In this document: in pieces, positions 15,708-40,840 of the stretch
Layout of the letters: the number at the start of each line of letters is the position of its first letter
Position numbering within the stretch: position 1 is the first letter of the stretch
From: Planctomycetota bacterium
GTDB taxonomy: Bacteria > Planctomycetota > B15-G4
Length of the DNA: 64,000 bases
Reading direction: 5' to 3'
NCBI GenBank assembly: GCA_038212275.1
Contig: JBBQUR010000002.1
Span: forward strand, 192,001 to 256,000
The notes under the pieces: model-generated
The model's input: the letters and a program-made list of their open reading frames with translations, nothing else
Told to the model about the DNA's origin: nothing
The model's database searches: none
Position numbers and translations under genes: made by a program

Positions 15708-18141
<2,434 letters not shown>

Positions 18142-20849: not shown

Positions 20850-21476
20850 TCAGGAGCGCCCGACCCTCGCGAGCAGGCTGGACATGTCGTCGGCGTGCTC
20901 CTCTTCCTTGGCCAGGATGCCTTCGAGCAGCCGGCGCGTCGTGATGTCGTCGGCGCCGATGTAGCGGATCATCGCGCCGTAGGACTCGATGGCGATGCGC
21001 TCGGCCACGAGGTTCTCGCGGATCATGTCGACGAGATCGCTGCCTTCCTTGTACTCGGAATGCGAGCGACTGGTCAGCGTGGCGGGCGAGAGGTCGGGCT
21101 CGCCGCCGAGCTGCACGATGCGATCAGCGAGTTGGTCGGCGTGGACCTGCTCCTCCGCGGCGTGCATCGCGAACTCGCTCGCGACCGGCTCCGCGGCGAG
21201 GCCCTGCGCCATGAAGTGGTGGCGCTTGTAGCGCAGCACGCAGACGATCTCGGTCGCCAGCGCCTCATTGAGCAGCTTGATCACCGTGGGAAGGTGCGCG
21301 CCATAGTCCTCGGTGACGGCGCCCTGCTCGATGTGCTTCCGGGCGCGCTCGCGAATGGCCGCGATGTCCGCGACGAACTCGCCCTTGCCGCTCTTCGCGG
21401 ACGGACTGCCGCCTTTCTTGTCGTCCGGGGAAACGCTCGCCTGATCGCCGTCGTGCCTGTGTTTGTGCTTGCTCAT
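20850..21476 (-). CDS. Ferritin-like (bacterioferritin-type) four-helix-bundle protein
   Basis: LNEALATEIVCVLRY, EEQVHAD...RIVQLGGEP, ENLVAERIAIESY, EEEHADD di-iron motifs. Confidence 0.85.
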   Translation of the reverse strand: MSKHKHRHDGDQASVSPDDKKGGSPSAKSGKGEFVADIAAIRERARKHIEQGAVTEDYGAHLPTVIKLLNEALATEIVCVLRYKRHHFMAQGLAAEPVASEFAMHAAEEQVHADQLADRIVQLGGEPDLSPATLTSRSHSEYKEGSDLVDMIRENLVAERIAIESYGAMIRYIGADDITTRRLLEGILAKEEEHADDMSSLLARVGRS

Positions 21477-25810: not shown

Positions 25811-27637
25811 ATGGCCCACTCACGCCTGTCCCTCGCGGTGCTGTTGCTGCTCGCGGCCTCGCCGGCCGCGCAGCAGGCTCAGCTGCGGCTCGATGCGGCC
25901 GATCACGCGGAGAGCGCGCGAGTGCGTGCGCTCGTCGGAGACCTTGGAGGCCCGGAACTTCCGCCCGTCCTCGCCAACAGTCCGCGCGACCGGCTGGAGT
26001 TTGCGGACCGCATCCCCGTGTCGCCCGTGCAAGCGGCGCAGTACGCAGCCGGCGCGCCGCCGGCCTATCTGCAGGGCATCGTGCCCGCTGGCCCCGGCGG
26101 CACCGGCACCGACAAGCAGGAACTCTTCTGGTACCAGGTGCCGGGGAACTACGACCCCGACGGGCCGCACGTCCCGCTCGTCATCGCCTACCACGGTTAC
26201 GGCAACTCCGCCAACAGCGTCGCGGTGCAGAGCACCATCGACGAGGAGTGCAACCTTCGCGGCTGGCTCTACGTGGCGCCGACCGGCATCGACGACAAGC
26301 TCTTCGGCGCGCCGATCAGCCAGATGAACACGGCCGCCGCGGTGCAGTGGATGATCGACCACTTCCACGTGGACGCCGAGCGCATCTACATGGTCGGCTT
26401 CTCGCTGGGTGGCGGCATCAGCGCAAACTTCGTGGCGCGCCACCGCGATCCGGACGGGATCATGATCGCCGCGCTGGGCATCGTCGCAGGCAGCTACGAC
26501 TGGACCGCCTCCTACACGCTGGGCGCGCCCTCGCTGAAGGTGTGGCTCGAGAACTCCTACAACTTCAATGCGCCGCCGACGCTCGCCGCCTTCGCCTACC
26601 AGCGCAGCAGCGCGCTGCACTTCACGCCGGGCACCTATCCCGCACTGCCCGGCGCGCTGGACAGCACGCTCTCCATGGCCTCCAACCTGGGCACGACACC
26701 GACCTACGTCACCTGGGACCTGGCCGACACGCTGGCCGAGGTGCTCGCGCAGCAGCCGGAGTTCGTGGGCCTGATGTCGTCGCTGGGCGGCGTGGTCGAG
26801 AGCCACCCGATCACCGGCACGCCGGTCACGCACAGCTGGGCCGTGCTGGACGAGCCCGCGCTGTTCGACTTCTTCGAGCAGCACGCGGTGGTGCGCACGC
26901 CCGCCACGTTTCACGCGCTGGCCGACGGCGACGTGGCCGTGAGCTGGGCCGGTCTGCAGCAGTCCGCCCCGCAGGCCTTCAGCCGCGTGGACGGCGATGC
27001 GACGACGGCGCCCGCGACGCTCTGCGCCACCGGCCTCGACAACCTCGCGCAGCTCACGCTGCACGCCGACCGCGCGGGACTCTCCGGTCCGGGCCCCGTG
27101 CGCGTGCTGGCCGCCTCGGTCTGCGCGACTCCCACCCTGCTGCGCTTCGACGGTCTCGGCGCGCCGCCCGCGTGGTTTGCGGACCCGACCTCGGGCGCGC
27201 TGCTGCCCGGCGACTCATCGGAGCCGGCGACCAACGCGCTGCTGTTCCCGCTGCCCGCACTCGCTTCGTGGAGCGCCGACCTCATCACGCACCCGCTCTG
27301 GACCACGAAGCTCACGACCTCGCCCTCGCCGGCCTTGCCCGGCGGAGCACTGGCCGTGAACCTCGATGCGCCTGCCGGCGCGACGCAGGCCTTCCTGCTC
27401 GTCGCCCTCGACGAGGCGCTGGCGGTGGTGAAGGGCACGCCGCTGACCGCGTCGCTCGCGCCGCCGCTGCTCCTGGTGTCCCTGCCCCTCGACGCCGCAG
27501 GCAACGTGCAGGTCGCCGGCGCGCTGCCGAATGACCCGGCGCTTTCCGGCCTGGACCTGTGCTTTCAGTCCGTCGCCTTCAGCGGCGGCCGCGCCATCGC
27601 GTCGGTCAGCAACCTCTGGCGGACGACGATCCAGTAG
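25811..27637 (+). CDS. Secreted alpha/beta-hydrolase (esterase/PHB-depolymerase-like) with an extra C-terminal domain
   Basis: Signal peptide; PLVIAYHG, VDAERIYMVGFSLGG (GxSxG), THSW. Confidence 0.7.
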   Translation: MAHSRLSLAVLLLLAASPAAQQAQLRLDAADHAESARVRALVGDLGGPELPPVLANSPRDRLEFADRIPVSPVQAAQYAAGAPPAYLQGIVPAGPGGTGTDKQELFWYQVPGNYDPDGPHVPLVIAYHGYGNSANSVAVQSTIDEECNLRGWLYVAPTGIDDKLFGAPISQMNTAAAVQWMIDHFHVDAERIYMVGFSLGGGISANFVARHRDPDGIMIAALGIVAGSYDWTASYTLGAPSLKVWLENSYNFNAPPTLAAFAYQRSSALHFTPGTYPALPGALDSTLSMASNLGTTPTYVTWDLADTLAEVLAQQPEFVGLMSSLGGVVESHPITGTPVTHSWAVLDEPALFDFFEQHAVVRTPATFHALADGDVAVSWAGLQQSAPQAFSRVDGDATTAPATLCATGLDNLAQLTLHADRAGLSGPGPVRVLAASVCATPTLLRFDGLGAPPAWFADPTSGALLPGDSSEPATNALLFPLPALASWSADLITHPLWTTKLTTSPSPALPGGALAVNLDAPAGATQAFLLVALDEALAVVKGTPLTASLAPPLLLVSLPLDAAGNVQVAGALPNDPALSGLDLCFQSVAFSGGRAIASVSNLWRTTIQ

Positions 27638-27647
27638 GGCGCGCAGG

Positions 27648-30257
27648 TCATCCCGCTCCGCCCAGGAGGGCAGACACGATGACGATGACGATGGCGATGC
27701 CGAGTCCCAGCGCGAGGAAGCCGAACACGCGGAAGGCGCGCTCCAGCTCCGGCGGGAACGGGCCAGTGAGGTGTTTCTGAAGCTCGCCTGAAGCCAGCAG
27801 CCGCTCGTACTCCAGCGGCTTGTCGTGGCGCAGCTCTTCCAGCGGCATGCGGCCCGTGAACATGACCATGTCCATCGGCCACTTGTCAGGGCGCAGATGC
27901 GAGTTGAAGAAGTGGATCGTGAAGATGAACACCACGGCAAGCAACGCTTCGTCGCTGTGCACGATGGTCGCGACGTTGAGGAACCAGCCTGGCACGACGT
28001 GCGTGGCCGCTTCGGGGAACCAGAGCATCAGTCCGGTGAGGCCGATGACCGCGACGCCCCAGAACACCGCGAAGTAGTCGAACTTCTCCCAGTAGGTGTA
28101 GCGCTCGAAGCGCGGCCTGGGACCGCGGCCGACGAACCAGCGCAGCATGCCGCGCAGGTCGTTCCAGTCGCGGCGCCCGAACATGAGCGTGTCGGGAGCC
28201 GTCAGCATCGCCAGCCAGCTCCGCTTCCAGCTGCGCCGCTTGCTGATCAGGTCGAGCAGGTGCACGCAGAAGATGGAGATGAGCGCCAGGGCGCCGATGC
28301 GGTGCAGCACGCGCATGGCATCGGGGCCGCCGAGCACGGGCGCGATGGCACCGGCCCAGCGCGCGGCCGAGAACTTCAGCGCCATGCCCGTGACGGCAAG
28401 GTCGAAGAAGGCCAGCATCATCACCATGTGCTGGATGCGCTGCTGGCGCGAGAAGCGCCTGAAGAACCAGCCCTCGCGCGTGGAGCGCATCGCCGCCTTG
28501 CCGGCCTGCCATTCCTTGCGCGTGCGCAGCAGCTTCACCAGCCATGCGGCGCTGTGTGCCAGCGCCACCACGAGCGTGCCGACGAGCAGCAGCGTCATGG
28601 CCCAGAAGGTCCAGAACAGCCACGGGTAGTGCTCCCGGTCATGCGGCGTAGCGTGCGTGAGGTAGCCGGTGAAGGCGACATGCGCGCCCTCGTGGCACTG
28701 GCTGCACGTGTTCACGATGTGACTGCTGCCCAGCGTCGAGGCCGGGTTGGAGGGCGGAAGGATCGCGTGCGTACCGTGGCAGTCGTAGCACTTGGCGGCC
28801 ACCGAGGAGCCGAGCAGCGTGGCCTTGCCGTGCAGCGTCTCGAGGAAGGTCTCGGCTTGCTCGGCATGGCAGTTGCCGCAGCTCTCCGTGACAGCCATCC
28901 GGAAGTTCGTCCCGTCGGTGCGGCCGATGGTGTGCGCCGTGTGGCAGTCGTTGCACGTGGGCAGCCTGCTGTCCGTCTCGGTGTTGCCCCGCCAGTGCAC
29001 GCCCGCGTGATATTGCTCCTCGATGCCCTGGTGGCACGCGCCGCACGTGGCCGCCACGTGATCGGGGGCAATGGACGAGCGCGGGTCCGAAGGCGCCTGC
29101 ATGGAGTGCGCGGTGTGGCAGCTCACGCACGTGGCGGCGACCACGAGGCCGGAGTCCATGAGGGCCTTGCCGTGAATGCTCTCCGTGTAACCACCGACGA
29201 TGTCGGCCGGAGCACGCCCGGTGCCCGCCTCGGCCTCGAGGCGCCGCGAGGCCTTCTCGCCCTCGCGATGGCACGTCGCGCAGAGTGCGGGAATGCGGCG
29301 CACGAACAGTGGCGAGTCGGGCTGCGTGTGCGGCGCCGCCGCGTGAACGTCGTGGCAGTCGAGGCAGCGCGGCGCATCGCTCACGCCCTGCGCGGAGAGC
29401 ACTCCATGGATGCTGGCCGCGTACTCATCGACGACGGCTGCATGGCACACGGCACAATTCACCTCATGAGTGGCCGTCTCGCAGGGCCGAGTCGGAGAGG
29501 CCCGCACGTCGGCGTGGCACTCCGCGCAGGCGATGCCCGCGTGCATGCTGCCGGCATAGGCCTCCGCCGCCACGTGAAGGCCCGGCCGCGCCGGGCCGTC
29601 GCCGGCGTCCAGATCGGTGCGCGCGTGGCACTCCATGCAATCGGCGTTCGCAAGGCCGCCGGGTTGCGCCGGCCGCGCGTCGTGCGACGCGTGGCAGTCC
29701 GCGCACGAGGGAATGACGCGTGGCGTCTGCTCCCAGAGCTCCGGGGCCATGACCTGCGCGTGCACCTCCGGCAGGCGCGTGTGGCAGGCGCCGCAGGTTT
29801 CCGCGACGCGCTCGCGGCTGGTGCTCGACTGTGGCTCGTCGGACGGCTGCACATCGTGGCCGGTGTGGCACGACGCGCAGGTCGCGGCGTCGATGAGTCC
29901 CTTGGCCGCCCTGCCCGGTCCGTGGATGCGGTCACTGGACGCGAAGGGGGTTGCCTCGTCCTCGTGGCACGTGGCGCACCGCACCGGCGCCACCTCGGCC
30001 GCGTGCAGTCCGTCCGTGCCCGCGAGGTCTGCGTGGCAGAGCACGCAGTCCATCGGCCCGTGGACGGAGGCCTCCAGTTGCGAGGCATCCACGAAGACCG
30101 ACATCGGGCGGCCGTTGCGGCTGCCCATGAGCTCGGGGTCCTCGTGGCAGCCAAGGCAGTCCGCGTTTTCCTGCGCCGCGACGGGCAGCGCCGCCAGGAG
30201 CACGACTCCCAGCGCGCGGAGGAGGGCACGAAGGTTGAACCGCTCCGTGGTGAACAT
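27648..30257 (-). CDS. 17-heme c-type cytochrome fused to a membrane cytochrome b domain (CbcL-like quinol oxidoreductase)
   Basis: Signal peptide; 17 CxxCH counted; C-terminal TM helices with His (QRIQH, VLHR, IVHSDEA, TIHFF) and YTYWEKFDYFAVFWG. Confidence 0.88.
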   Translation of the reverse strand: MFTTERFNLRALLRALGVVLLAALPVAAQENADCLGCHEDPELMGSRNGRPMSVFVDASQLEASVHGPMDCVLCHADLAGTDGLHAAEVAPVRCATCHEDEATPFASSDRIHGPGRAAKGLIDAATCASCHTGHDVQPSDEPQSSTSRERVAETCGACHTRLPEVHAQVMAPELWEQTPRVIPSCADCHASHDARPAQPGGLANADCMECHARTDLDAGDGPARPGLHVAAEAYAGSMHAGIACAECHADVRASPTRPCETATHEVNCAVCHAAVVDEYAASIHGVLSAQGVSDAPRCLDCHDVHAAAPHTQPDSPLFVRRIPALCATCHREGEKASRRLEAEAGTGRAPADIVGGYTESIHGKALMDSGLVVAATCVSCHTAHSMQAPSDPRSSIAPDHVAATCGACHQGIEEQYHAGVHWRGNTETDSRLPTCNDCHTAHTIGRTDGTNFRMAVTESCGNCHAEQAETFLETLHGKATLLGSSVAAKCYDCHGTHAILPPSNPASTLGSSHIVNTCSQCHEGAHVAFTGYLTHATPHDREHYPWLFWTFWAMTLLLVGTLVVALAHSAAWLVKLLRTRKEWQAGKAAMRSTREGWFFRRFSRQQRIQHMVMMLAFFDLAVTGMALKFSAARWAGAIAPVLGGPDAMRVLHRIGALALISIFCVHLLDLISKRRSWKRSWLAMLTAPDTLMFGRRDWNDLRGMLRWFVGRGPRPRFERYTYWEKFDYFAVFWGVAVIGLTGLMLWFPEAATHVVPGWFLNVATIVHSDEALLAVVFIFTIHFFNSHLRPDKWPMDMVMFTGRMPLEELRHDKPLEYERLLASGELQKHLTGPFPPELERAFRVFGFLALGLGIAIVIVIVSALLGGAG

Positions 30258-30399
30258 GCCCCGCCCTCGCGCCGGTCAGCGTGCCTGCCGCACGAAGCGG
30301 CAGGCGCGCAGGAACCAGGCCGCAGCCGCCCCCGCCGAGAGGCCTTCCGCGCGCGGCCACACGGCCGCCGCGGGCACGACACCGGAGTCGCTCACGCCG

Positions 30400-31125
30400 T
30401 CACGGCTTGTCGCAGCTACCGTCGGCTGCGCCGTGCGCGCAGGCGCATTCGGTGCACGCGCAGGTCGCCGCCAGTGCGGCCTTGCGTTCGTCGGAAAGCT
30501 CACGGCGCGGATCGAGATGCCGGATCTTCGGTTCGTACTCGCGGAAGCAGAACTTCTTGAAGGTCGGGCTTTCCTTGTTGTGGCAGCCGACGCAGGTGGC
30601 CGCGCTCGGGGTGAAGACGATCTCGCCCTCGGGCACGACGACCTTCTCGCCATCCTTCGCCTTGGCGGCGGCGGCGAAGCGCGCCTTCATGTGCGCCTCA
30701 CCCGGACCATGGCACGACTCGCATTGCACGCCCATGTCGGCCTTGAAGCCCGAGGCGAGTTCTTCGGCCGGAACGCCGAAGGCCGTCACGTGGCACTTGA
30801 GGCACGCATCGGCCTTCTGCGGGTCTTCGATGCCGAGCTTGCTGGCGGCTTCCTTTGCCTCGGGCGACGCGAGGCGCGCGAAGGCCTTGCTGTGATCCGT
30901 GCCTTCCCACTGGGCGAACTGGTCGCCGCCCGCCTCGGACTTGTGGCAGTTCTTGCACTTGGCGGCGCCGATGTACTTGTTGGCACCCGCCGCGCTGGCG
31001 CCAGGAACGGCCGCGCGCACCGGCACGGGATCCAGGGATCCGGCAGCAACGAGACCGAGGGCACACGCGGCGACGACGAGTCCGCTCCAGAGGCTTGAAG
31101 ACAAACCGAGGCACTTCACGCGCAT
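30400..31125 (-). CDS. Tetraheme cytochrome c554-like protein with a Cys-rich C-terminal tail
   Basis: AGGAGGAG RBS; YIGAAKCKNCH, CLKCH, GVQCESCHGPG, CVGCH; tail CACTECACAH...C. Confidence 0.85.
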   Translation of the reverse strand: MRVKCLGLSSSLWSGLVVAACALGLVAAGSLDPVPVRAAVPGASAAGANKYIGAAKCKNCHKSEAGGDQFAQWEGTDHSKAFARLASPEAKEAASKLGIEDPQKADACLKCHVTAFGVPAEELASGFKADMGVQCESCHGPGEAHMKARFAAAAKAKDGEKVVVPEGEIVFTPSAATCVGCHNKESPTFKKFCFREYEPKIRHLDPRRELSDERKAALAATCACTECACAHGAADGSCDKP

Positions 31126-31203
31126 CTCCTCCTGAACAGGGCCATTCGATTCCCGGCGCAGTCTGTCCCGAAGGTGGGCGCAGCCGCGCAGGGAGAAATA
31201 TTC

Positions 31204-31220
31204 CGCAACCCTCGTGCCAA
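31204..31220 (-). promoter_or_regulatory. Sigma-54 -24/-12 promoter upstream of the c554-like gene
   Basis: Minus strand TTGGCACGAGGGTTGCG, an exact TGGCACG-N4-TTGC match about 80 nt before the ATG. Confidence 0.75.
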
Positions 31221-31238
31221 CTGCGGAGACCGCGAGCT

Positions 31239-32147
31239 TCAGTCCGGCGGAAGCGATTCGCCAGCCGACGCGACGCCTGTGTCGGGCCACGCCGGGAAAT
31301 ATCCCGCGGCTGCCGCTGCATTCTCATTGCCGCGGAGCGCCGCGCGGACGGCGGCCGCCCAATCGTCGTCCGCTTCGGCGGCCAGATCGGCGCCAAGCCG
31401 CCGGAGCTGCGGGGGCGTGCCGAACTGCGCGACCGTTGCCGCGGCCCGGCGCCGCAGGTCGGGCGGGATCTCGCGAGCGCTCACGCACTCCGCAAGCAGC
31501 GCCACGGCGGCCGGCTCCCGTGCGCCACGTGTCGCGAGGTCACTCAGCGCAAACTCGGGCAGCGACGCGTGTCCGGTGACGCGCGCATCCGGATCCGGCG
31601 GCAGGCGCAAGGCATGTGCAAACCAGGTCCCCGCCTCGGGCGAGCCGGTGTCCCGGAGCGCACGCAGCAACGCGACGCGCTCGGCGTCGGCATGACCGGG
31701 TGCGAAGACCGACGGAGCCAGCTCGGCAAGTCCGCCCCCAGGCTGTCCGGCGATGACGACGAAGTGCTGATAGAGCGCGCGCTCGCTCCCCGGCCGGGGC
31801 TGCCTCGGGAACTCGGCCTGATCGGAATCCGCAGGCCCGCTCGCCGCCGCGGGCCACGGCGCCTCGGCGTTCGGCTCGAGCGCAACGGCCTGCAGCGCCT
31901 CCGCGGCGACGGAGCCTGCACGGCGGTTCGCCATCGACGCCGCATCCGGCACATCCGGCACATCTGATGAAGGCATCGCGGCGCTCGAGACCGCCTGGCC
32001 CGACGCCTCCACTGCGGCCGGCGGACGCTGCGGTCCGGCGTCCGCCATCACCAGCGCGATGACCGCGGCGACCGTCGCCAGCACGGCAACGGTCGCTGCA
32101 AGCATCGCTCCCCGCGTGCCGGGTGCCCTGTGGGATGCCGTGTTCAC
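31239..32147 (-). CDS. Hypothetical protein: N-terminal TM anchor, Ala/Pro linker, helical C-terminal domain
   Basis: GTG start after GGGAGG, 10 nt after the decaheme gene stop; hydrophobic MLAATVAVLATVAAVIALV. Confidence 0.65.
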   Translation of the reverse strand: MNTASHRAPGTRGAMLAATVAVLATVAAVIALVMADAGPQRPPAAVEASGQAVSSAAMPSSDVPDVPDAASMANRRAGSVAAEALQAVALEPNAEAPWPAAASGPADSDQAEFPRQPRPGSERALYQHFVVIAGQPGGGLAELAPSVFAPGHADAERVALLRALRDTGSPEAGTWFAHALRLPPDPDARVTGHASLPEFALSDLATRGAREPAAVALLAECVSAREIPPDLRRRAAATVAQFGTPPQLRRLGADLAAEADDDWAAAVRAALRGNENAAAAAGYFPAWPDTGVASAGESLPPD

Positions 32148-32157
32148 GCACCTCCCG

Positions 32158-35100
32158 TCAACGCGGCTTGTGGACCAGCTCCACGGCGACTTCCTTGCCC
32201 TCGCCGTGGCAAAGGGCGCACGCCTCGGCGCCCGACAACGTCGTCTGCGTCTCGATATGCACCGTGGTCAGGTCGTCGTCGTGGCACGCACTGCAGACCG
32301 AGGCCCATTCATGCACTTCCGGCGTCTGGCCGCCGACGCCGGGGTAGTCGCGATCCGCGGGGCCCTGCCACAGCGTGTTCTCGGTGCCGTGGCACTTGGT
32401 GCAGTTCATCGTGCCGCCGGGGAAGGCCGGGAACTCGACCTCGTCGTACATCGAGGCGGCGCCGCCGAATCCGATCACCTGGTAGGTGCTGGCATTGGCC
32501 AGCTCCGCGCCTCGGTGAATCTTGTGAAGCATCGTGCGGAAATCGATGGTCACGCCGGTCGACGGAGGCGCCGACGTGGTGTCGTACTGCGCCTTGTCCT
32601 CGCCGCCCGAGACGCTGTGGCAGAGCAGGCAGGACTCCACGCCGCGCCGGCCGCCGCCGTGGAACTGCGTGTCGTTGTGGCACGCGTTGCAGTTGGCGGT
32701 GGACGAGATGATCTCGTGCGGCATCACCTCCGTGGCCGTGGCGCCGTACAGGAAGTTGAAGTCGACCGCGTTCGAGGTGCTCCGGTAGGTCTGCACCTCG
32801 CCCTGCAGGGCGACCTGCAGATTCTGCGAGAACCACAGCGAGACGACGCAGGTGCCGTCCACGTAGGGCCTGCCGACCCATTCGCCCCACTCCGGACCCA
32901 GCGTGTCGGAGTCATTGGGCGGCGGCTGGTAGAGAGTCTGCAGCGTGTCGCCCGCGTGCCTGCGGTAGCCGAAGACGCCGTCGGTGCGGTAGGTCAGCAC
33001 GACGCCGTTGCTGTTGGCGGCGAAGGGCACGACCGACGTGATCGTGCCGTTGGCGGCGTTCAGCGTGTACTGATTGCCGGCGCCCTCCTGCCGGAAGGTC
33101 AGCGTGGCCTTGCCCACCGCCGCGCCGCTGGCGTGTGCGTAACGCACCGGCGACTTGAACCACATGCGCGTCGCGCTCTCGACCCATCCCAGCTGCAGAT
33201 ACTCGCGGGTGCCCAGACCTGCTGCGCTGTCGAGCACGACGTAGGTCGTCGAGGCGGTCGTGTAGCCAGCCGTGGACGCGACGTCCACGTAGCGCGCGAA
33301 CGGCGCGACATCGGCACTGAGCGTCGTCGGGTTGGCCACGGCCGTCACTTCGGAGAGCGCCTGCCGCCCGAAGTAGACGGGCAGGTTGCCCGCCGTGAAA
33401 GTCTGCCCGACCATGCCGTTGCCATCGCCGAGGTACTCGGTCGTGAACTCCATCGGGAACGCGATCGTGTAGCTGGACGCGTCCGGCACGAACTCGTAGT
33501 AGATGCGGTCGGGCGTCGGGAGCGTGCCCGTGAAGGCCGTACGCCCCGCGATGATCCCGAAGAGCACCTGGCTCGCCGGGCCACCGAGGAGCCCCGACAC
33601 GCCCGTCTCGAAGACCGTCACGTAGATGGTGTTGCCCGCGGCGAAGGCCGTGCTGCCCGCCGCGACGAGGAACGCGACGGTGCCGTCATCGGAGGTGAAG
33701 GCGTTGCTGCCGCTCACCGTGCTGGGAAGCGTGCCGGAGCCCATGGCCCCGGTCACGGAGCCCGTGACCGTGAAGGCCTGGGGTCCGGAGAAGGTCACGG
33801 CGAGGTTCTGAGTCACGGCGTCGCTGCGGAGAATGAGCGCGGAGAGCGACGAACCGTTCGGGTTTGTGCTCTTGCCGTCCACCGGCTGCAGCGCGCCGCT
33901 GCCGAGGCTGCCGCTCACCGTGCCCGTGACGGTGAACGCCGTGGCCGAGCTGAACTCCACCGTCAGCGTCTCGGCCACCGCAGGGCCGGACGCGACGACC
34001 TTGCTCATCGCGCCCTTGCCCGACGCGCTCGCGGCCTGCAGGCGGCCCGCGAAGTCGTACGGGCTGAGGCTGACGTTGCTCGTCCCGGTGTACGGCATCA
34101 TGACCTGCTGGTTGTTCGTCGGGCCGAGGAGCAACGACACCGAGGCGTCCATCGCGGTCAGGCCGACGGGGTCGCCCTGCTCGGTGCCGAGGCTGAAGAC
34201 GAGACGGGGCGTGTCGCCCGCCTGAAACCTGCCGCCGGCTCCGGTGCCACCCACGACGTCCGTGATGTCCACGTCGATGCCCGCACTGATTGCCGGATCT
34301 TCGAGCGGATGGGCGTGACCGTCCACGACGGCAAGCGAGTCGCCCTCCGTGGCGTGGCACACGTTGCAGGAGCTGCTCGGATTGGCCGGCATGATGTCCT
34401 GATTGGCTGCATAGGGCCGGTTCCAGTCGATGTCGTCGTGGCAACTTCCGCACGAGGCGCGGCCCGGCTGCGACTTGTAGAGATCGCCCTGAGCGGGGGC
34501 CTGCAGTTCGCCGCTCCCATCCGGATCGCCGTGGCACTTCAGGCACGTGGTGGCGCCGGCGCGGATCGCGTCCTCCTGGGCCTTCTGGCCCGAGGTCAGC
34601 GCCGAGTAGCCGTAGTCCTTCGGGACATTCGACGTGAGGTTCGGCCAGACCGGGAAGCGGACGAACGAGAAGTCGTTCACGCTGTTCATGAAGCCGACCA
34701 CCTCATAGGGCGCCGGAGTCGCGTCATAGTTGCGCGTCCCGTCTTCGTTCGTCGCCACGCCGTTCACCGACGGCAGGTGGTTGGCGTTGTGCAGCTTGTG
34801 GATCATCACCCTGAAGTCGATCGACACTCCGGGCGTGCCGTCCGCCGCCGTCGCCACGTTCTTGTCCTCGGCGCCGGCCGTGTGACACAGGAGGCAGAGC
34901 TTCGCCTCGCGGCGCAGGCCGCCGTGCGCCTGCAGCGACACGTGGCACTGGTTGCAGTTCTCGGTGCTCACGACGTCGCGCGAGGCGATCGCCGGTGTCG
35001 TGCCGAGCAGGAAGTCCTTCGTGGCGTTGCCGACATCGCGGTAGATGGCGCCATCGACGGTGTAGGTCCAGGCCGTGTACATGCCGACGGTGTAGGTGCC

Positions 35101-35679
35101 ACCCAGCAGCGACTCGCCGGCCAGCTCGCCGTCCGCGGCCCCGAAGGACGCGCTGTCATTGAGCGGCGGCAGGTAAGCCTCCGGGATCGGCGTCGCGAAG
35201 GTGTACTTGTAGGTGGCCACCCCCACTTTCACCGAGGCTGTCGCCAGGTCGGACTTCTCCGCGAGCACCCGCTGATAGTTGAAGGAAGGGCCCGACATCA
35301 TGATGCGCGCGGTGCCCATCTCGGCCAGGCCCCACGAGGAGCCATCGTTCTTCTTGAGCGTGAAGGTGACCGACAGCTTGTCGCCCGGAGCGAAGTGATC
35401 GGAGTTCGGCTTGGCCGCCGACGCGCTCGGCGCCGCGGCGGACGGCAGTGAACCGCCGGACAGCTCGATGATCTGCAGTTGCACGCCCGGCGCGTCTTCT
35501 GCCGGCAGCAGCTGGGTGTCCTCCGGCGTCGGCTCGGCCGAACTGCCGCCCGATCCGCCGCCGCCGCCGCCGCTGCCGCCACCGCAACCGGCGAGCAGCC
35601 CCGCCGTGCAGAACACCACGGCCATGAACTGCGCGGGGACCGAGATTCGGAAGAAGGAGGGCAAGGCGCTGAACTTCAT
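32158..35679 (-). CDS. OmcA/MtrC-family decaheme outer-membrane lipoprotein cytochrome, unusually long (1173 aa)
   Basis: Lipobox LAGC plus Gly linker; 5+5 CxxCH in two domains, each with CNxCH...HGGxRR...CLLCH...IDFRxMxHKxH, separated by beta-rich domains. Confidence 0.88.
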   Translation of the reverse strand: MKFSALPSFFRISVPAQFMAVVFCTAGLLAGCGGGSGGGGGGSGGSSAEPTPEDTQLLPAEDAPGVQLQIIELSGGSLPSAAAPSASAAKPNSDHFAPGDKLSVTFTLKKNDGSSWGLAEMGTARIMMSGPSFNYQRVLAEKSDLATASVKVGVATYKYTFATPIPEAYLPPLNDSASFGAADGELAGESLLGGTYTVGMYTAWTYTVDGAIYRDVGNATKDFLLGTTPAIASRDVVSTENCNQCHVSLQAHGGLRREAKLCLLCHTAGAEDKNVATAADGTPGVSIDFRVMIHKLHNANHLPSVNGVATNEDGTRNYDATPAPYEVVGFMNSVNDFSFVRFPVWPNLTSNVPKDYGYSALTSGQKAQEDAIRAGATTCLKCHGDPDGSGELQAPAQGDLYKSQPGRASCGSCHDDIDWNRPYAANQDIMPANPSSSCNVCHATEGDSLAVVDGHAHPLEDPAISAGIDVDITDVVGGTGAGGRFQAGDTPRLVFSLGTEQGDPVGLTAMDASVSLLLGPTNNQQVMMPYTGTSNVSLSPYDFAGRLQAASASGKGAMSKVVASGPAVAETLTVEFSSATAFTVTGTVSGSLGSGALQPVDGKSTNPNGSSLSALILRSDAVTQNLAVTFSGPQAFTVTGSVTGAMGSGTLPSTVSGSNAFTSDDGTVAFLVAAGSTAFAAGNTIYVTVFETGVSGLLGGPASQVLFGIIAGRTAFTGTLPTPDRIYYEFVPDASSYTIAFPMEFTTEYLGDGNGMVGQTFTAGNLPVYFGRQALSEVTAVANPTTLSADVAPFARYVDVASTAGYTTASTTYVVLDSAAGLGTREYLQLGWVESATRMWFKSPVRYAHASGAAVGKATLTFRQEGAGNQYTLNAANGTITSVVPFAANSNGVVLTYRTDGVFGYRRHAGDTLQTLYQPPPNDSDTLGPEWGEWVGRPYVDGTCVVSLWFSQNLQVALQGEVQTYRSTSNAVDFNFLYGATATEVMPHEIISSTANCNACHNDTQFHGGGRRGVESCLLCHSVSGGEDKAQYDTTSAPPSTGVTIDFRTMLHKIHRGAELANASTYQVIGFGGAASMYDEVEFPAFPGGTMNCTKCHGTENTLWQGPADRDYPGVGGQTPEVHEWASVCSACHDDDLTTVHIETQTTLSGAEACALCHGEGKEVAVELVHKPR

Positions 35680-35765
35680 GATCCGAGATCCTCTTGTCCT
35701 GAAACCGGGTTGAAGGCGGAGTGCTCTCACAGGAAGCCGAAGGCACGCCCCTCGCGGACTGCTTG

Positions 35766-35781
35766 AGCAATTGGCGTGCCG
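35766..35781 (-). promoter_or_regulatory. Sigma-54 -24/-12 promoter upstream of the decaheme gene
   Basis: Minus strand CGGCACGCCAATTGCT = GGCACG-N4-TTGCT, about 87 nt before the ATG. Confidence 0.72.
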
Positions 35782-36045
35782 TTCGCTCAATGGAAATGAG
35801 CCTTGAATCGCCGGGGCGCACGCGTTCGGGAGCCTACTCGACATGTCGCGGCCAAACTTTTCCCACTCGCGGCAGCCTCGTCGCCTCGGAACGGAAGCGT
35901 GCGCATGCGACTCACGGCAGAGGCCTGCCTGCCCCCTGCCGACGCGTGCAGCAGCAACTCGGTCATGTCGCCGGCGCTGAGGCGTCCCGGGGAAAATCCC
36001 GCTGTCGTCACTGCATTCTCAGCTGCGGCTTCACTCGGCGCGGCC

Positions 36046-36125
36046 GCCTCGCTGGTGGCATGCCTCACTGGTGGCATGCCTCACTTGTGGCAGCCCTCAC
36101 TTGTGGCAGCCCTCACTTGTGGCAG
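36046..36125. repeat. 16-bp tandem repeat x5 (CCCTCACTTGTGGCAG) duplicating the last codons and stop of the 13-heme gene
   Basis: Units at 36046, 36062, 36078, 36094 and 36110, diverging stepwise away from the gene. Confidence 0.9.
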
Positions 36126-37153
36126 AAGGTGCAGTCGTCGCCGTTGTCCACGTGCGGCAACGGAGCGGAGATGCCGTGACAGGCCCGGCAATCCATGCCC
36201 GGGAAGTGGTTGGGCGGCTGGTCGGTGGCATCCAGGTGACTGGGCGTGCTCTTGTGGCACACCGAGCAGCTCTCGCTTTGCAGCGGGTAGTGACATGCCA
36301 TGCAGTGCGTGTCCTGAGGAGCGCCCCACGCGCCGCTGTTGTGACTCAGCGGCGGAGTGTCGTTGTGGCAACGCACGCAGGAGGACGGTTCGTGGCAGGT
36401 CCTGCACGAGTCGCGATCCATGTCGGCGACGACGCCGTGGCCGCGCAGTCTCCAGAAGTTGTTGTGACTGGCCGGCGGCTGGTCCTGGTGGCACTTGATG
36501 CAGGTCTGGTCCGTGTGGCAGAGGGTGCAGTCGTTCGCGGGCCCCTCGAAATCGCCGCGCACCGCAACGCCGTGTGTCGTCATCCACTGCTGACTGTGAT
36601 TCGGGGGCATCGTGTCCGTGTTGATCAGGCTGTGGCAGACCGTGCACGAGGTGTCCTGGCCGACGCTCTGATGGCAGCGGATGCAGTCGTCCATGCGCGG
36701 CGACACGGAGGGATCCACGAAGTCGTTGGTGAGGATCGGCTCGTGGCACGCTTCGCAGGAGGCGCCCGCGCCGACGTGCGTCGCGTGCGAGAACTTCACC
36801 TCGTCCGCCAGCGCCGAGGCGCGGGTCGCGCGGTAGGCATCGCCGTCGAAGAGCGAGGCCACCTGCCGGTCCGGCTCCTTCCCGGCATCCAGCTCCTCGT
36901 GGCACAGCGCGCACTGGGCCGGCTTCACGTCCTGGACGACGTCGCCGTCCTCGTACGCGGAGTGGCAGTCGCTGCAGCTCAGGCCTTCCTCGAGGTGCCG
37001 TTCGTGGCTGAAGGCAAGCGGCTTGTCGCTCAGGCCCAGATACTGCAGCACCGCGCAGCCGGTGATCGCGAGCACGGCCAGGGAGAGAAGCCTGGCCAAC
37101 CTGCCGCGCGAACCCGGTCGACGCCCATCCGTGAGTCTGTCTAGAAGCGCCAT
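36113..37153 (-). CDS. 13-heme c-type cytochrome (cytochrome c3/c7-like N-terminal half)
   Basis: ATG at 37153 overlaps the porin 3' end; hydrophobic N-terminus with ITGC; FSHxxH motifs; 13 CxxCH counted. Confidence 0.87.
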   Translation of the reverse strand: MALLDRLTDGRRPGSRGRLARLLSLAVLAITGCAVLQYLGLSDKPLAFSHERHLEEGLSCSDCHSAYEDGDVVQDVKPAQCALCHEELDAGKEPDRQVASLFDGDAYRATRASALADEVKFSHATHVGAGASCEACHEPILTNDFVDPSVSPRMDDCIRCHQSVGQDTSCTVCHSLINTDTMPPNHSQQWMTTHGVAVRGDFEGPANDCTLCHTDQTCIKCHQDQPPASHNNFWRLRGHGVVADMDRDSCRTCHEPSSCVRCHNDTPPLSHNSGAWGAPQDTHCMACHYPLQSESCSVCHKSTPSHLDATDQPPNHFPGMDCRACHGISAPLPHVDNGDDCTFCHK

Positions 37154-38682
37154 GTTGCCTTCGCCGTGAGGGTGTCGAAGTTGTCCACGTCGCTCACTTC
37201 GTGATCGATGCCGAGCGACCACGTGAGCGTCTTGTCCACGAGATACCGCATCGTCAGGTAGTAGTCGCGCACGTCCTGGCGATCCTCGTTGAGCAGGAAG
37301 TCGTTCTTGTACAGCGCGTAGAACGAACCGAGCGACATCCGGACGGCCTTGGTCCACTTCCGCGTGAGGTCGACGCCCCACGTCGCGTATTCGGTGTTGT
37401 CGTTGCCGTCCCAGAGCTCGCCGGTCACCGAGAAGTCCAGGTCTTTCGTGACGAAGTCGTGCGTCGTCTCCGTGAGGAAGTAGCGCGTGAACTCGTGGTT
37501 GAAGTCGCCCTCGTCGTCGCTGTTCTTCAGCTTCCGGCCGTCCAGTCCGGCGGTCACGTCGTAGCCGGCTTCGAAGGATTTGCTGGCCAGCACGCGCGCC
37601 TGACGGAAGGGTTCGTACTGCGTCAGCGTGGCGTAGTAAGGATCGAATTCCTCGACCAGGAACTCCTGCGTGCGAAGCAGCTCGTGATACCAGAAGTTCA
37701 CCAGCCAGCCGGACTCGGGGCGCACCCACGTCGCGCGCAGATCGAGATCGCGCGGCTTCTCCTCGAGCACGGAGTAGGCGCCTTCCACGTGCACCTCCTT
37801 GCCGAACTGCTGGCCGAGTCGCGCGGCGTAAAGGTCGTTGTTCTCCGAACCCAGCTGCGACTCGCCCTGCTGCACGCCGTTCTCGATGTGCAGCGCGTCG
37901 AGGCGCAGCTTGCCGCCCTCCCACGGCCGCACCTTGAAGTAACCGCCGACCACCTTGTTGCCCGACGACGACGACTCGTACTCGTAGTCGGACTGACCGA
38001 GGTAGGCGCCGTATTGCTGCCGCGCCGAGCCATCCGGCGCGGTCTCGATGGCCACGCCGTCGAAGCGCACGTACTCGGGCGTGTCGTCGAGCTGCTGGCG
38101 GCCGATGCGCAACAGGCTGAAGCCGTTCTCGTGGAAGTCCGCGTACGCCTCGTACAGGTTGGAGTGCACGGAGTTGGAGTAGGTGTCCTCCAGACCGCCG
38201 TACAGGTCCTGGTTGCTGTTCTTGTCGAGGTCCCACGCGGCCCGGGCCAGCACGTAGCCGGTCACCTCATCCTTGGCCGCGTCACCGATGCTCGTCTCGA
38301 GCAGACCGTAGATGTCCGTGTCGTGCGTGCCGCCCGTGGTCCTTTCCACGAAGCGCAGCCCGAACGATCCGTGCACCACGCCGCTCTCATCGATCTCGCC
38401 TTCCTTGCCATCGTCCGTGGTCGCGCCCGCGGCGGCAGATCCGTACGGCGAGGCAGCGCCGGCAGGAGTTGTTCCCGGCGCGCCCTCGTCCACGGAGACC
38501 ACGGCACCTTCGCTCCATGCTGCGGTGTCGCCCGTCTCGCCGGCGCCCGCTGCGCCTTGAGCAGGACTGCCGCCGGCCGGGCCGGCACAACCCGCCATCA
38601 GCGAGGCGGACGCCACGCCGGCAGCCAGTGCAAGGAGGAGGCCGTAGCCCCTGGGTGCCGATGATTCGCCGTGTCTGTCCAC
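37141..38682 (-). CDS. Putative outer-membrane beta-barrel porin of a porin-cytochrome complex
   Basis: Signal peptide with MAGC; alternating amphipathic strands (LYEAYADF, LRIGRQ, YGAYLG); acidic loops; C-terminal AKATWRF. Confidence 0.75.
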   Translation of the reverse strand: MDRHGESSAPRGYGLLLALAAGVASASLMAGCAGPAGGSPAQGAAGAGETGDTAAWSEGAVVSVDEGAPGTTPAGAASPYGSAAAGATTDDGKEGEIDESGVVHGSFGLRFVERTTGGTHDTDIYGLLETSIGDAAKDEVTGYVLARAAWDLDKNSNQDLYGGLEDTYSNSVHSNLYEAYADFHENGFSLLRIGRQQLDDTPEYVRFDGVAIETAPDGSARQQYGAYLGQSDYEYESSSSGNKVVGGYFKVRPWEGGKLRLDALHIENGVQQGESQLGSENNDLYAARLGQQFGKEVHVEGAYSVLEEKPRDLDLRATWVRPESGWLVNFWYHELLRTQEFLVEEFDPYYATLTQYEPFRQARVLASKSFEAGYDVTAGLDGRKLKNSDDEGDFNHEFTRYFLTETTHDFVTKDLDFSVTGELWDGNDNTEYATWGVDLTRKWTKAVRMSLGSFYALYKNDFLLNEDRQDVRDYYLTMRYLVDKTLTWSLGIDHEVSDVDNFDTLTAKATWRF

Positions 38683-38732
38683 TGTATTGCCCTGTGTCCC
38701 AGACTTCGGGAAGCGTGTCCGGGCGCCTCTGT

Positions 38733-38748
38733 CGCAACTGTCATGCCG
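38733..38748 (-). promoter_or_regulatory. Sigma-54 -24/-12 promoter upstream of the porin gene
   Basis: Minus strand CGGCATGACAGTTGCG = GGCATG-N4-TTGC, about 50 nt before the GTG. Confidence 0.6.
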
Positions 38749-38860
38749 GTGTCACGCGCGCGAAGGACCTGCGCTTCCGGTGCACTTGCGGGGCCCCCGA
38801 AGCGGCACCTGGTCCCGCGAATGCGCCCTCCGGCCGCTGCTCCACCGCTCGGATCGCGAA

Positions 38861-39343
38861 CTATTCCGCATCTCCTCTGGTGAACTCCACGCCGCGAGGC
38901 GGCGTCTCCGCGTGTCGAGTGAATCGGGAGTGATCTGCTCCTGACTCCCGAACCGCGGAGCCCGCACGCACCACCTTCACCTGCTGGCCGCAGAGCTCGT
39001 CCATGAGGCGCTCGAGCGCCGCGTCCTCGAACTCGTCCCAGCCCTTGCAGAGGTCGCGCTCGAGCAGCTGCGTGTCGCAACACAGCTCGGCCCCGAAGCG
39101 CCGCTTCCGCTCGACCAGCCAGGCGTTGGCGAGCGCCTCGAATTCCGCACGCGGGAGCTCGGGATGCCTCAGCGACAACCACCAGAAGCGCCGCTTGAGA
39201 TCGGCGTAGCTCCACCGGGCAAAGCCGTGGCAGAGCGTGCCGGTGCGTGCGGCAACCTCGCAGAGGCAGTGCTTGTCATCCACCTGTTCCGCGAGACGCG
39301 GGCGCAGAAGGTCGATGGCTTGCTCACGCGTGATGGTCTTCAT
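38861..39343 (-). CDS. Cys-rich hypothetical cytoplasmic protein (160 aa)
   Basis: GAGGT RBS; MKTITREQAIDLLR...HCLCEVA...LCHGF...LCCD...LCKGWDEF; protein-like composition. Confidence 0.65.
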   Translation of the reverse strand: MKTITREQAIDLLRPRLAEQVDDKHCLCEVAARTGTLCHGFARWSYADLKRRFWWLSLRHPELPRAEFEALANAWLVERKRRFGAELCCDTQLLERDLCKGWDEFEDAALERLMDELCGQQVKVVRAGSAVRESGADHSRFTRHAETPPRGVEFTRGDAE

Positions 39344-39601
39344 GGCGCTACCTCGGGCGATCGAGGGGAGTGAGGGTGATCGGATGCCACGGCAGCAGCC
39401 GATGCCAGCTGTCCCGAAGCAAGCAACTATCCATCCAGCGACTTCGCTTCGCTGCGCTCCCGCCCGGGCACGCGTCGAGCCGGCCGTCAGCGATCGCGAT
39501 CGGGTGCGCGACCTGCCCGTTCCAGTCGCTAGAATCCGCGCCTCGTTCGGCGGCGCGCTTCCCTGACGGAGCGCTCGGCGCGCGCTCACTCGGGAGACGA
39601 C

Positions 39602-40840
39602 ATGGCCAGCAAGCCGCGCAAGGGGCGCACCGCCGCCAAGAAGAAGAGCTCCTCCGCGCCACGCCGCAGCGCCGCGGGCAGTCGTCCGGGGACCAGCACC
39701 AGGTCGGCCGAAGCCGCCGCCATCAAGTCCCACGAGCACTGGCGCGAGCACATGGGCACGGGGCACAGCGACGGCCTCGTGCCGGTGCGCTCGCTGGACC
39801 TCTCGACCGTCTCCTCCGTGAATGACCTCGTCCGCGGCATGTCGGCCACGAGCTTCGGCGGGCGATCGCTGGGCGAGGCGGCCGACATCCTGGAAGTCAT
39901 GGTGCGCGACCCGGGCTGCAAGGTCGTGCTCACGCTCTCGGGCGCGATGACCATCGCGAAGCAGGGCCTCATCATCGCGGACATGATCGAGCGCGGCTGG
40001 GTGCATGCCGTCGTCTCCACCGGCGCGCTCATGTGCCACGGCATGGTCGAGACCGCCGGCATGCTGCACTTCAAGCACGACCCGACCATGGGCGACGAGA
40101 AGCTCTTCGCCAAGGGCTACAACCGCGTCTACGACACGATCGAGCTGGAGCAGAACCTCGACGACACCGAGAAAATCATGGCGAAGATCCTCGGCAGCGT
40201 GCCGGAGAACGAGCACGGCCTCCCCGAGACGCTCTGCAGCCACAAGCTGAACCGCCGTATCGGCGAGTACCTCGCGCGGCACACGAAGGGCCGCGGTCCG
40301 CTGCGCTCGGCCTTCGAGCACGACGTGCCCATTTATGTCCCGGCGTTCACCGACAGCGAACTCGGCCTGGACTACGGCACCAACAATCATCGCCGCCGCC
40401 TCGCCGGCAAGGGCCCGATCCCCTACGACCCCTTCCTCGACCTCGAGGACTTCCGCACGCGCATCGACAGCCACGAGACCTGGGGCATCTTCACCATCGG
40501 CGGCGGCGTGCCGCGCAACTGGGCCCAGCAGGTCGCGCCCTACATCGACATCCTCGGCAAGCGCCTGCCGGAGATGCGCCGGCCGCTGCGCCGCTACAGA
40601 TACGCGGTGCGCATCTGCCCGGAGCCCGTGCACTGGGGCGGCCTCTCCGGCTGCGACTACAGCGAATCCGTGAGCTGGGGCAAGATCGTGCCGCGCAGCG
40701 AAGGCGGCCGCTGGGCCGAGGTCAAGGACGACGCGACCATCGCCTGGCCGCTCATCGTGAAGGCCGTCATGGAGCGCGTGGATGGCGCGGGCGGCAGGCG
40801 CAAGCGCGCGGCATCCCCTCGTGCGGCGCCCGGGCGCTGA
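39602..40840 (+). CDS. Deoxyhypusine synthase-family protein
   Basis: SFGGRSLGEA, LTLSGAMT, VSTGA, PAFTDSELG, IGGGVPRNW, GGLSGC...ESVSWGKI, DATIAWPL. Confidence 0.9.
   Translation: MASKPRKGRTAAKKKSSSAPRRSAAGSRPGTSTRSAEAAAIKSHEHWREHMGTGHSDGLVPVRSLDLSTVSSVNDLVRGMSATSFGGRSLGEAADILEVMVRDPGCKVVLTLSGAMTIAKQGLIIADMIERGWVHAVVSTGALMCHGMVETAGMLHFKHDPTMGDEKLFAKGYNRVYDTIELEQNLDDTEKIMAKILGSVPENEHGLPETLCSHKLNRRIGEYLARHTKGRGPLRSAFEHDVPIYVPAFTDSELGLDYGTNNHRRRLAGKGPIPYDPFLDLEDFRTRIDSHETWGIFTIGGGVPRNWAQQVAPYIDILGKRLPEMRRPLRRYRYAVRICPEPVHWGGLSGCDYSESVSWGKIVPRSEGGRWAEVKDDATIAWPLIVKAVMERVDGAGGRRKRAASPRAAPGR

Follow-up and report, generated by a model that had tools for sequence, protein, structure and literature searches.

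A putative trans-envelope porin-cytochrome conduit of an uncultured planctomycete, in which a non-MtrAB barrel and 13-haem cytochrome adjoin an OmcA/MtrC-family decahaem

A cluster of six co-oriented genes on the minus strand of a planctomycete contig (27648-38682) is, on balance, likely to encode a trans-envelope porin-cytochrome conduit that would carry electrons outward, from the quinone pool to the cell surface. The window, i.e. the whole stretch of DNA that was analysed, comprises 64,000 nucleotides (nt; positions 192,001 to 256,000 of contig JBBQUR010000002.1, assembly GCA_038212275.1) from an uncultured member of the Planctomycetota, and coordinates are those of the window unless a locus or contig is named. 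In agreement with a first-pass annotation made from the letters of this DNA alone, gene calls and motif counts give 0, 13, 10, 0, 4 and 17 CxxCH haem-binding motifs from the barrel gene onwards (44 in total), with gaps of 10 to 433 nt inside the cluster and one 13-nt overlap, where the stop of the barrel gene meets the start of the 13-haem gene (Table 1). This number is far above chance, as stop-to-stop frames of at least 80 amino acids (aa) that hold three or more CxxCH number only 12 in the whole 4.65-Mb genome, and 4 of these 12 belong to the locus. In the path that we propose, the 17-haem/cytochrome b fusion would exchange electrons with the quinone pool, oxidizing quinol, and the c554-like tetrahaem protein would carry them over the periplasm to a lipid-anchored 13-haem cytochrome, which, partly inside a 22-strand lipoprotein barrel with which it would form one complex, would conduct them across the outer membrane. 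A surface MtrC/OmcA-type decahaem would then hand them on to acceptors that are large or insoluble, for instance Fe(III) or Mn(IV) minerals, humic matter, electrodes or partner cells.

Table 1. Genes of the cluster and a tandem repeat within it, in window coordinates.
Feature	Position	Strand	Characteristics
Outer-membrane beta-barrel lipoprotein (predicted)	37141-38682	-	513 aa, 0 CxxCH, lipobox ..LMAGC.., C-terminal ..ATWRF
13-haem c-type cytochrome	36113-37153	-	346 aa, 13 CxxCH, lipobox ..ITGC
OmcA/MtrC-family decahaem lipoprotein	32158-35679	-	1173 aa, 10 CxxCH as 5+5, lipobox ..LLAGC
Membrane-anchored protein without family	31239-32147	-	302 aa, 0 CxxCH, one N-terminal hydrophobic helix
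Cytochrome c554-like tetrahaem protein	30400-31125	-	241 aa, 4 CxxCH, N-terminal signal or anchor
17-haem/cytochrome b fusion	27648-30257	-	869 aa, 17 CxxCH, then about six hydrophobic helices
16-nt tandem repeat, 5 copies	36046-36125		Tandem Repeats Finder score 111, 93% matches

The product of the first gene matches no Pfam or NCBIfam family and belongs to a family that comprises 525 cluster representatives at E ≤ 1e-3, and 224 at E ≤ 1e-30, in an exhaustive HMMER search, with conservation over roughly residues 100-513. A word-based homologue search found four proteins with the single sequence and the same four with a 105-sequence alignment, low-complexity words having swamped the candidates. 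The nearest named homologue is labelled 'Planctomycetota bacterium', and the neighbours in the ESM Atlas are unannotated clusters only, mostly of Planctomycetota with one of Nitrospirota. The AlphaFold2 model (105 sequences; mean predicted local distance difference test score, pLDDT, of 81.1) exhibits a signal helix, a disordered linker at residues ~28-93, and 22 beta-strands from residue 103 to 512, so that the porin-like barrel suspected in the first-pass annotation is recovered as a predicted 22-strand fold. All structural matches of this model by Foldseek and VIA are outer-membrane barrels, the best of which are pores of 22-24 strands, and a structural search independent of Foldseek gave the FimD pore at Z 17.2 and the 24-strand PapC usher pore at Z 15.9; against the 22-strand barrel of the TonB-dependent receptor Cir, the model aligns over 369 residues with Z 16.6-16.7 and a root-mean-square deviation of 4.7. 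The lipobox cysteine (Cys32) is nearly invariant in 17 aligned close homologues, and the predicted fold together with this residue therefore indicates a lipid-anchored, large-lumen outer-membrane barrel of an unannotated family. The MtrB/PioB family (PF11854) has no match at E ≤ 0.01 in this protein and none in the host genome, which is 91% complete; MtrB is also not among the best 50 rows of either structural list, an absence that excludes nothing.

In the 13-haem cytochrome, all 13 CxxCH motifs are invariant in 56 aligned homologues, along with 13 further invariant or near-invariant histidines. Bis-His ligation of all 13 haems would call for just this many, so that these residues are candidate distal ligands. 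The protein has an N-terminal lipobox (G32-C33), whose G-C pair is invariant in the six closest sequences. On the DmsE/MtrA model TIGR03508 it scores 23.9 bits against a cut-off of 192.2 and, taken with the missing PF11854 match, this is consistent with the earlier view that the porin module is not of the MtrAB type. Over its N-terminal half the family profile leads to ActA of Alternative Complex III (8k9e_A, E 1.7e-23; 6f0k_A, E 1.8e-22), and the 32 PDB sequences that the profile matched at E ≤ 0.01 include no chain with the name MtrA. ActA is the pentahaem subunit of Alternative Complex III, an inner-membrane complex. The AlphaFold2 model of the cytochrome (pLDDT 76.8) likewise has Foldseek matches below E 0.01 to ActA chains only (E 7e-4), and MtrA is not among the structural matches listed for it, an absence that again excludes nothing. 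The C-terminal eight haem motifs are closely spaced, and this part of the protein is the candidate trans-barrel wire. Two variants were seen among relatives: 17 CxxCH occur in two of 50 complete homologue frames (L078 and one other), and at L096 (7249-11034) barrel and cytochrome lie within one stop-free frame of 1262 codons, which may be a fusion or merely an open upstream frame in GC-rich DNA.

The third product passes the model of the OmcA/MtrC family TIGR03507 (254.6 bits; cut-off 209.3), matches PF22113 (MtrC/MtrF domain II/IV) with 147.5 bits in two stretches, and matches the sequence of MtrF (3pmq_A) at E 3.3e-8, in line with the MtrC/OmcA-type terminal cytochrome named in the first-pass annotation. 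Its CxxCH motifs lie at residues 242-438 and 997-1154, i.e. in two pentahaem domains with a long middle domain between them, and exactly 10 motifs are present in 29 of the 30 complete homologous frames from related loci. The spacing between haems 5 and 6 is 559 aa here, as compared with 353-390 aa in 26 homologous frames and 550-562 aa in three, and this copy therefore has a long variant of an already large middle domain. We propose that the decahaem is the cell-surface terminal cytochrome of the conduit. The ~195 residues that are extra relative to most homologues fall at residues ~530-735, and the long form is common to L031, L045 and L058. Two decahaem paralogues flank the barrel/13-haem pair, one on each strand, in L038 (G014 contig 2) and L061.

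The remaining three genes encode one protein without a recognized family and two cytochromes. The former is Ala/Pro-rich, extends over 302 aa from a GTG start or over 288 aa if the ATG at 32105 is used, matches no family in Pfam or NCBIfam, and carries a single hydrophobic helix at residues 15-33. HEAT-repeat clusters are among its neighbours in the ESM Atlas (0.92-0.93), with a recognition value that stays under the usual threshold; the protein is possibly HEAT-like, which we offer only as a lead. The tetrahaem protein belongs by sequence to the cytochrome c554 family (PF13435, 61.6 bits with a cut-off of 20.8; cytochrome c554 1bvb_A, E 5e-10) and falls far below the cut-off of the Nitrosomonas equivalog NF043010 (46.3 vs 400); a periplasmic relay is its proposed role. 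The last gene encodes an 869-aa fusion with a signal peptide, a haem domain at residues ~30-525 holding 17 CxxCH within residues 34-522, and six hydrophobic helices. This protein scores 33.8 bits on PF01292, just over the cut-off of 30.1, and 35.8 bits (E 7.9e-9) on TIGR01583 (FdnI), below the cut-off of 115.85, and five histidines of the membrane region (His568, His610, His652, His767 and His782) are invariant in eight homologues. By these sequence features it has the CbcL/MtrH/MtoC architecture with a six-helix dihaem cytochrome b, as the first reading of the locus had supposed, and it is proposed to be the quinol/quinone entry point.

To place the cluster among its relatives, we used the six closest 13-haem sequences to collect 54 related loci, with flanks limited to 10 kb and by contig ends; 53 carry planctomycete-lineage labels and one an Acidimicrobiales label. 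Upstream sequence suffices to judge the pair in 48 of these loci, and in 46 of them the 13-haem gene is immediately preceded by the barrel gene; of the other two, one has a 555-nt gap between truncated matches and is a 47th pair by eye, and one gives a weak partial match. Where at least 3 kb beyond the pair is available, a decahaem gene follows it directly in 25 of 43 loci; counted at any position, such a gene is present in 31 of 54 loci, and in four it lies upstream of the barrel gene on the same strand. The c554-like gene is present in 20 of the 54, and the gene of unrecognized family after the decahaem in four. The conserved synteny that the first-pass annotation left to be looked for is thus provided by the barrel/13-haem order. 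The combination, which that annotation did not recognize from model organisms, is not confined to this genome, as a barrel and 13-haem pair, often with an MtrC-type decahaem, recurs across uncultured Planctomycetota. Within the order of the host, the barrel occurs in 12 of 42 genomes, strong decahaem matches in 10 of 41 with the host counted (three more are weak and fall on a low-complexity N-terminus), and a CbcL-like gene in 9 of 42. Eight loci from relatives in the order all have the barrel followed by the 13-haem gene; the decahaem gene may follow this pair, precede it or be missing, and the positions of the c554-like and CbcL-like genes vary. Across the phylum, 401 genomes were sampled with a profile of the barrel family (E ≤ 1e-10) and 84 gave a match; among the 244 of high quality, 57 did. 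Bare pairs also occur: two complete genomes from another family of the phylum (L093 and L094) have a barrel and a 14-CxxCH frame of 348-359 aa with no decahaem, and a locus labelled Candidatus Anammoxibacter (L080) has a pair, likewise with no decahaem, in which the barrel is 27% and the cytochrome 32% identical to those described here.

These bare pairs provide the link to systems already described (PMC4245776, PMC6295460, PMC7188810 and the peat preprint cited below are drawn on here from excerpts). A two-gene pcc cluster of a porin-like protein and a periplasmic cytochrome has been reported in Candidatus Kuenenia stuttgartiensis and in Anaeromyxobacter; the cytochromes have 338-344 aa and 12-14 haem motifs, and these clusters were proposed to span the outer membrane (PMC4245776). 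The porin-cytochrome (Pcc) porins are given 18-22 strands (Shi et al. 2014, PMC4245776), so that the 22 predicted strands, the 13-nt gene overlap and the conserved pairing all resemble Pcc, as do the 13 haems in 346 aa, which lie inside the 5-14 motifs of Pcc periplasmic cytochromes, and the gene order of Geobacter OmbB-OmaB-OmcB, i.e. barrel, periplasmic multihaem cytochrome and outer-membrane cytochrome lipoprotein. As L080, L093 and L094 match the description of Shi et al., the core pair is by analogy most likely of the Pcc kind, the size and haem count of its cytochrome being close to those described for the Kuenenia cluster. Two differences stand out, in that the pair here is joined to an OmcA/MtrC-family decahaem, none being reported for Pcc clusters in the excerpt of PMC4245776, and that conserved lipoboxes are found here on both the barrel and the 13-haem protein. 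MtrCAB of Shewanella oneidensis shares with this locus the porin-cytochrome logic and an OmcA/MtrC-family decahaem lipoprotein with two pentahaem domains, and the quinol-linked inner-membrane cytochrome encoded nearby is reminiscent of the mtr clusters that carry mtrH/mtoC (PMC6295460). In contrast to MtrCAB, the locus has no MtrB-family barrel and no MtrA/DmsE-family decahaem (13 haems vs the 10 of MtrA), and its own decahaem extends to 1173 aa, of which 559 separate haem 5 from haem 6. The fusion protein shares with CbcL/MtrH/MtoC an N-terminal multihaem c domain followed by a HydC/FdnI-like six-helix dihaem cytochrome b, and its 17 motifs lie within the 3-23 of those homologues, two of which are in Planctomycetes (PMC6295460). 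Compared with CbcL of Geobacter sulfurreducens it has 17 haem motifs rather than nine, and the likeness is one of architecture, the only model passed being at the Pfam level.

Divergent porin-cytochrome clusters that are conserved in peat Acidobacteriota and Verrucomicrobiota (bioRxiv 10.64898/2026.05.27.727921) are similar in that they join a divergent barrel to a multihaem cytochrome of the periplasm and to surface cytochromes, MtrC-like or other. They differ in belonging to other phyla; the excerpted main text of that preprint names Planctomycetota a single time, where sulfite reductase expression is discussed. A survey of MtrCAB clusters covers three phyla, and the string 'Planctomycet' is absent from its main text (PMC8805035), while lake and subsea-tunnel surveys list unspecified 'novel clusters' or PCC hits in Planctomycetota with no architecture described (bioRxiv 10.1101/2022.03.26.485925; PMC10732223). 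Every part of the locus belongs to a known kind, and the core pair, noted in its anammox form in 2014, occurs widely across the phylum. The new features are that this core is recurrently joined to an MtrC/OmcA-family decahaem in Planctomycetota outside the anammox group, that both core proteins are predicted lipoproteins and, at this locus, that a 17-haem CbcL-type protein is co-located. In the literature, as far as it is represented by the sources and excerpts used here, we found no description of an MtrC-family decahaem adjoining this barrel/13-haem pair in Planctomycetota, and no experimental characterization of the same arrangement. The suggestion of the first-pass annotation that the host may belong to a lineage not known for metal or electrode respiration does not wholly hold for the phylum, as extracellular electron transfer has been shown for anammox planctomycetes, where a porin-cytochrome complex was invoked in electrode-dependent anammox (PMC7188810).

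The host genome (4.65 Mb in 40 contigs) has the cytochrome c maturation and secretion genes to which the first-pass annotation had pointed. ResB and CcsA are adjacent on contig C27 and constitute System II; CcmE of System I was not found in the 91%-complete genome, which is immaterial as System II is present. Eight secretin-family matches, together with the Mla genes in the window, indicate an outer membrane. The genome also encodes three heme-copper oxidases (COX1 family), the catalase-peroxidase KatG, an NrfA-type nitrite reductase and several other multihaem proteins.

Several observations weigh against an outward conduit built as we propose. At the outer membrane, the roles given to the barrel family and to this decahaem subgroup rest on sequence and models, and the 13-haem protein is unlike MtrA or any solved trans-barrel cytochrome, ActA-type subunits being its sole structural relatives. 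At the level of the complex, of which the first-pass annotation had envisaged porin, 13-haem and decahaem proteins together, the pair of barrel and 13-haem protein was modelled and gave a score of 0.32 (median of three runs; best of three controls 0.00), with at least 54% of contacts agreeing between runs and a partner pLDDT of at least 62. Among solved complexes the pass mark is attained in 116 of 157 cases, and among mismatched pairs in 2 of 215; passes at ≤0.60, where this pair falls, comprise only 18 of those 157 solved complexes and both of the passing mismatches, so that the prediction, which was computed without haems, lends weak support to the association. If the barrel were simply a channel for substrates or a pore for export, the 13-haem protein would be a periplasmic redox protein lying outside it and no electrons would cross the outer membrane. 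Such an arrangement would fit the transporters, ushers and porins that make up the structural matches of the barrel, the resemblance of the N-terminal half of the cytochrome to an inner-membrane complex subunit, and the weak support from the complex prediction. We nevertheless regard it as highly improbable, since the two genes are almost always paired, with stop and start overlapping here, a gene for an MtrC/OmcA-family lipoprotein often adjoins the pair, and arrangement and sizes fit accepted porin-cytochrome clusters (PMC4245776).

The coupling of the outer-membrane parts to the inner membrane raises a second set of difficulties. Of the 54 related loci, no more than five have a CbcL-like gene inside the flanks that were fetched, and a single one combines all five haem and barrel components; in the order, 6 of the 12 barrel-bearing genomes have no CbcL-like match at E ≤ 1e-20. 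A terminator-like hairpin (31227-31202, minus strand) lies 3' of the gene of unrecognized family and before the c554-like gene, although such sites are at chance level in this sequence (5 found vs a mean of 4.7 in shuffled sequence). These features would be expected if two unrelated units were neighbours, namely an outer-membrane module (barrel, 13-haem, decahaem and the protein without family) and a separate c554-like/17-haem cytochrome b module that serves another respiration, e.g. with nitrite or another soluble acceptor. The NrfA of the host is in keeping with such a division, as is the closest relative with the cluster (G006), which has non-cytochrome genes after its c554-like gene and no CbcL-like match in a genome that is 87% complete. 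On the other hand, of the 9 genomes of the order with a CbcL-like gene, 6 carry it no more than about 10 kb from the barrel gene, in differing arrangements, which argues for selection on the linkage; furthermore, the c554-like gene recurs among the barrel loci as described above, and the six genes here are co-oriented and closely spaced. We consider two independent units improbable, and favour the single conduit in which the inner-membrane protein would feed the outer-membrane parts. The first-pass annotation had called the conduit complete, and all the proposed parts are indeed present in one locus; that they make up a complete conduit is an inference, tempered by the rarity of the CbcL-like gene among the related loci.

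The direction of flow is a separate matter, and we agree with the earlier view that it is not fixed by sequence. The same conduit could run inward, as proposed for Mto/Pio systems, with electrons from Fe(II), reduced humics, cathodes or partner cells delivered to the quinone pool via the cytochrome b fusion, or to terminal oxidases. Homologues of CbcL/MtrH/MtoC are found in Fe(III) reducers and Fe(II) oxidizers alike, with no distinguishing sequence feature described (PMC6295460, excerpt). The three COX1-family oxidases and KatG imply that the host can live with oxygen and, together with NrfA, that extracellular acceptors are not its sole option, which makes inward flow conceivable and counts against our proposal. 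However, gene clusters for Fe(II) oxidation typically have no MtrC-type surface cytochrome (PMC4245776, excerpt), and one is encoded here and directly downstream of the pair in the majority of testable related loci. The MtrC-type surface protein thus favours outward flow; the conduit probably works in that direction, and inward transfer appears unlikely, with the oxidases of the host keeping a place for it.

A broader reading also deserves mention. It is a serious possibility, if one that falls a little short of an even chance, that the locus represents a planctomycete-wide lineage of conduits, built on a lipid-anchored 22-strand barrel and a 13-haem cytochrome with no MtrA/MtrB-type part, that has repeatedly recruited different surface and inner-membrane modules, here an MtrC/OmcA-type decahaem whose middle domain is doubled and a quinol oxidase of the CbcL type with 17 haems. 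If this reading is true, a capacity for mineral, humic or electrode respiration would have gone unrecognized in many Planctomycetota of soils, sediments and sludge outside the anammox group. Soils, sediments, lakes and wastewater all hold abundant Planctomycetota, and those that are not anammox bacteria are regarded as aerobic or fermentative degraders of polymers. A conserved conduit on an unannotated barrel family, found in 84 of 401 genomes, would add a large group of possible metal, humic and electrode respirers that are only partly visible to marker-based tools. The locus also indicates that an MtrC-type surface cytochrome can pair with a non-Mtr barrel and wire, which bears on the modularity of conduits and on their spread between phyla. 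As the proposed outer-membrane, periplasmic and inner-membrane parts all lie within one 11-kb stretch, this genome is a good test case.

Outside the cluster, deoxyhypusine synthase and MlaCDE are encoded on one side and an alpha/beta hydrolase, a sulfatase, ferritin, TsaD and KatG on the other; these housekeeping and hydrolase genes are unrelated to it, and the cluster boundaries therefore stand as first reported. No Rfam match at E ≤ 0.1 was found across 27000-40000, and no sigma-70-like promoter match at the locus. The 16-nt tandem repeat starts in the last codons of the 13-haem gene (Cys-His-Lys-stop) and extends into the 433-nt gap before the decahaem gene, and may be a slippage-prone or regulatory element. 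The GC content of the window is ~70%, and it drops to 0.675 and then 0.653 across 34001-38000 (the 5' half of the decahaem gene, the 13-haem gene and the barrel gene) from 0.69-0.73 on either side; this dip could reflect a foreign origin of the outer-membrane module or merely amino-acid composition. The KatG-type catalase-peroxidase gene (15723-18110) and the ferritin-like gene (20850-21476) lie within 12 kb of the cluster, which fits a host that meets oxygen and iron.

Traces of close relatives were found in environmental sequence. In one run of a compost RNA library (one study), 17 contig pieces, 90-99% alike, cover parts of the c554-like, decahaem, 13-haem and barrel genes; they are a weak hint that a relative transcribes the cluster, since DNA can be present in RNA libraries. 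No contig covers the 17-haem/cytochrome b gene or most of the gene of unrecognized family, a gap that, with contigs from a single run, says nothing on expression. Metagenome contigs from activated sludge (runs X3 and X4, one study) are 90-99% alike over much of 27400-38900, so that a close relative with the cluster seems to live in sludge as well as in sediment; small shares in runs X4-X6 were not used for habitat claims. Elsewhere in the host genome, contig C1 has a frame of ~1335 codons (228011-232015, L097) whose product also carries 10 CxxCH motifs, along with LVIVD repeats and EF-hand motifs at its C-terminus; this protein is unrelated to the decahaem of the MtrC type. TPR repeats are fused to several further multihaem proteins of the host (L098, L100, L101).

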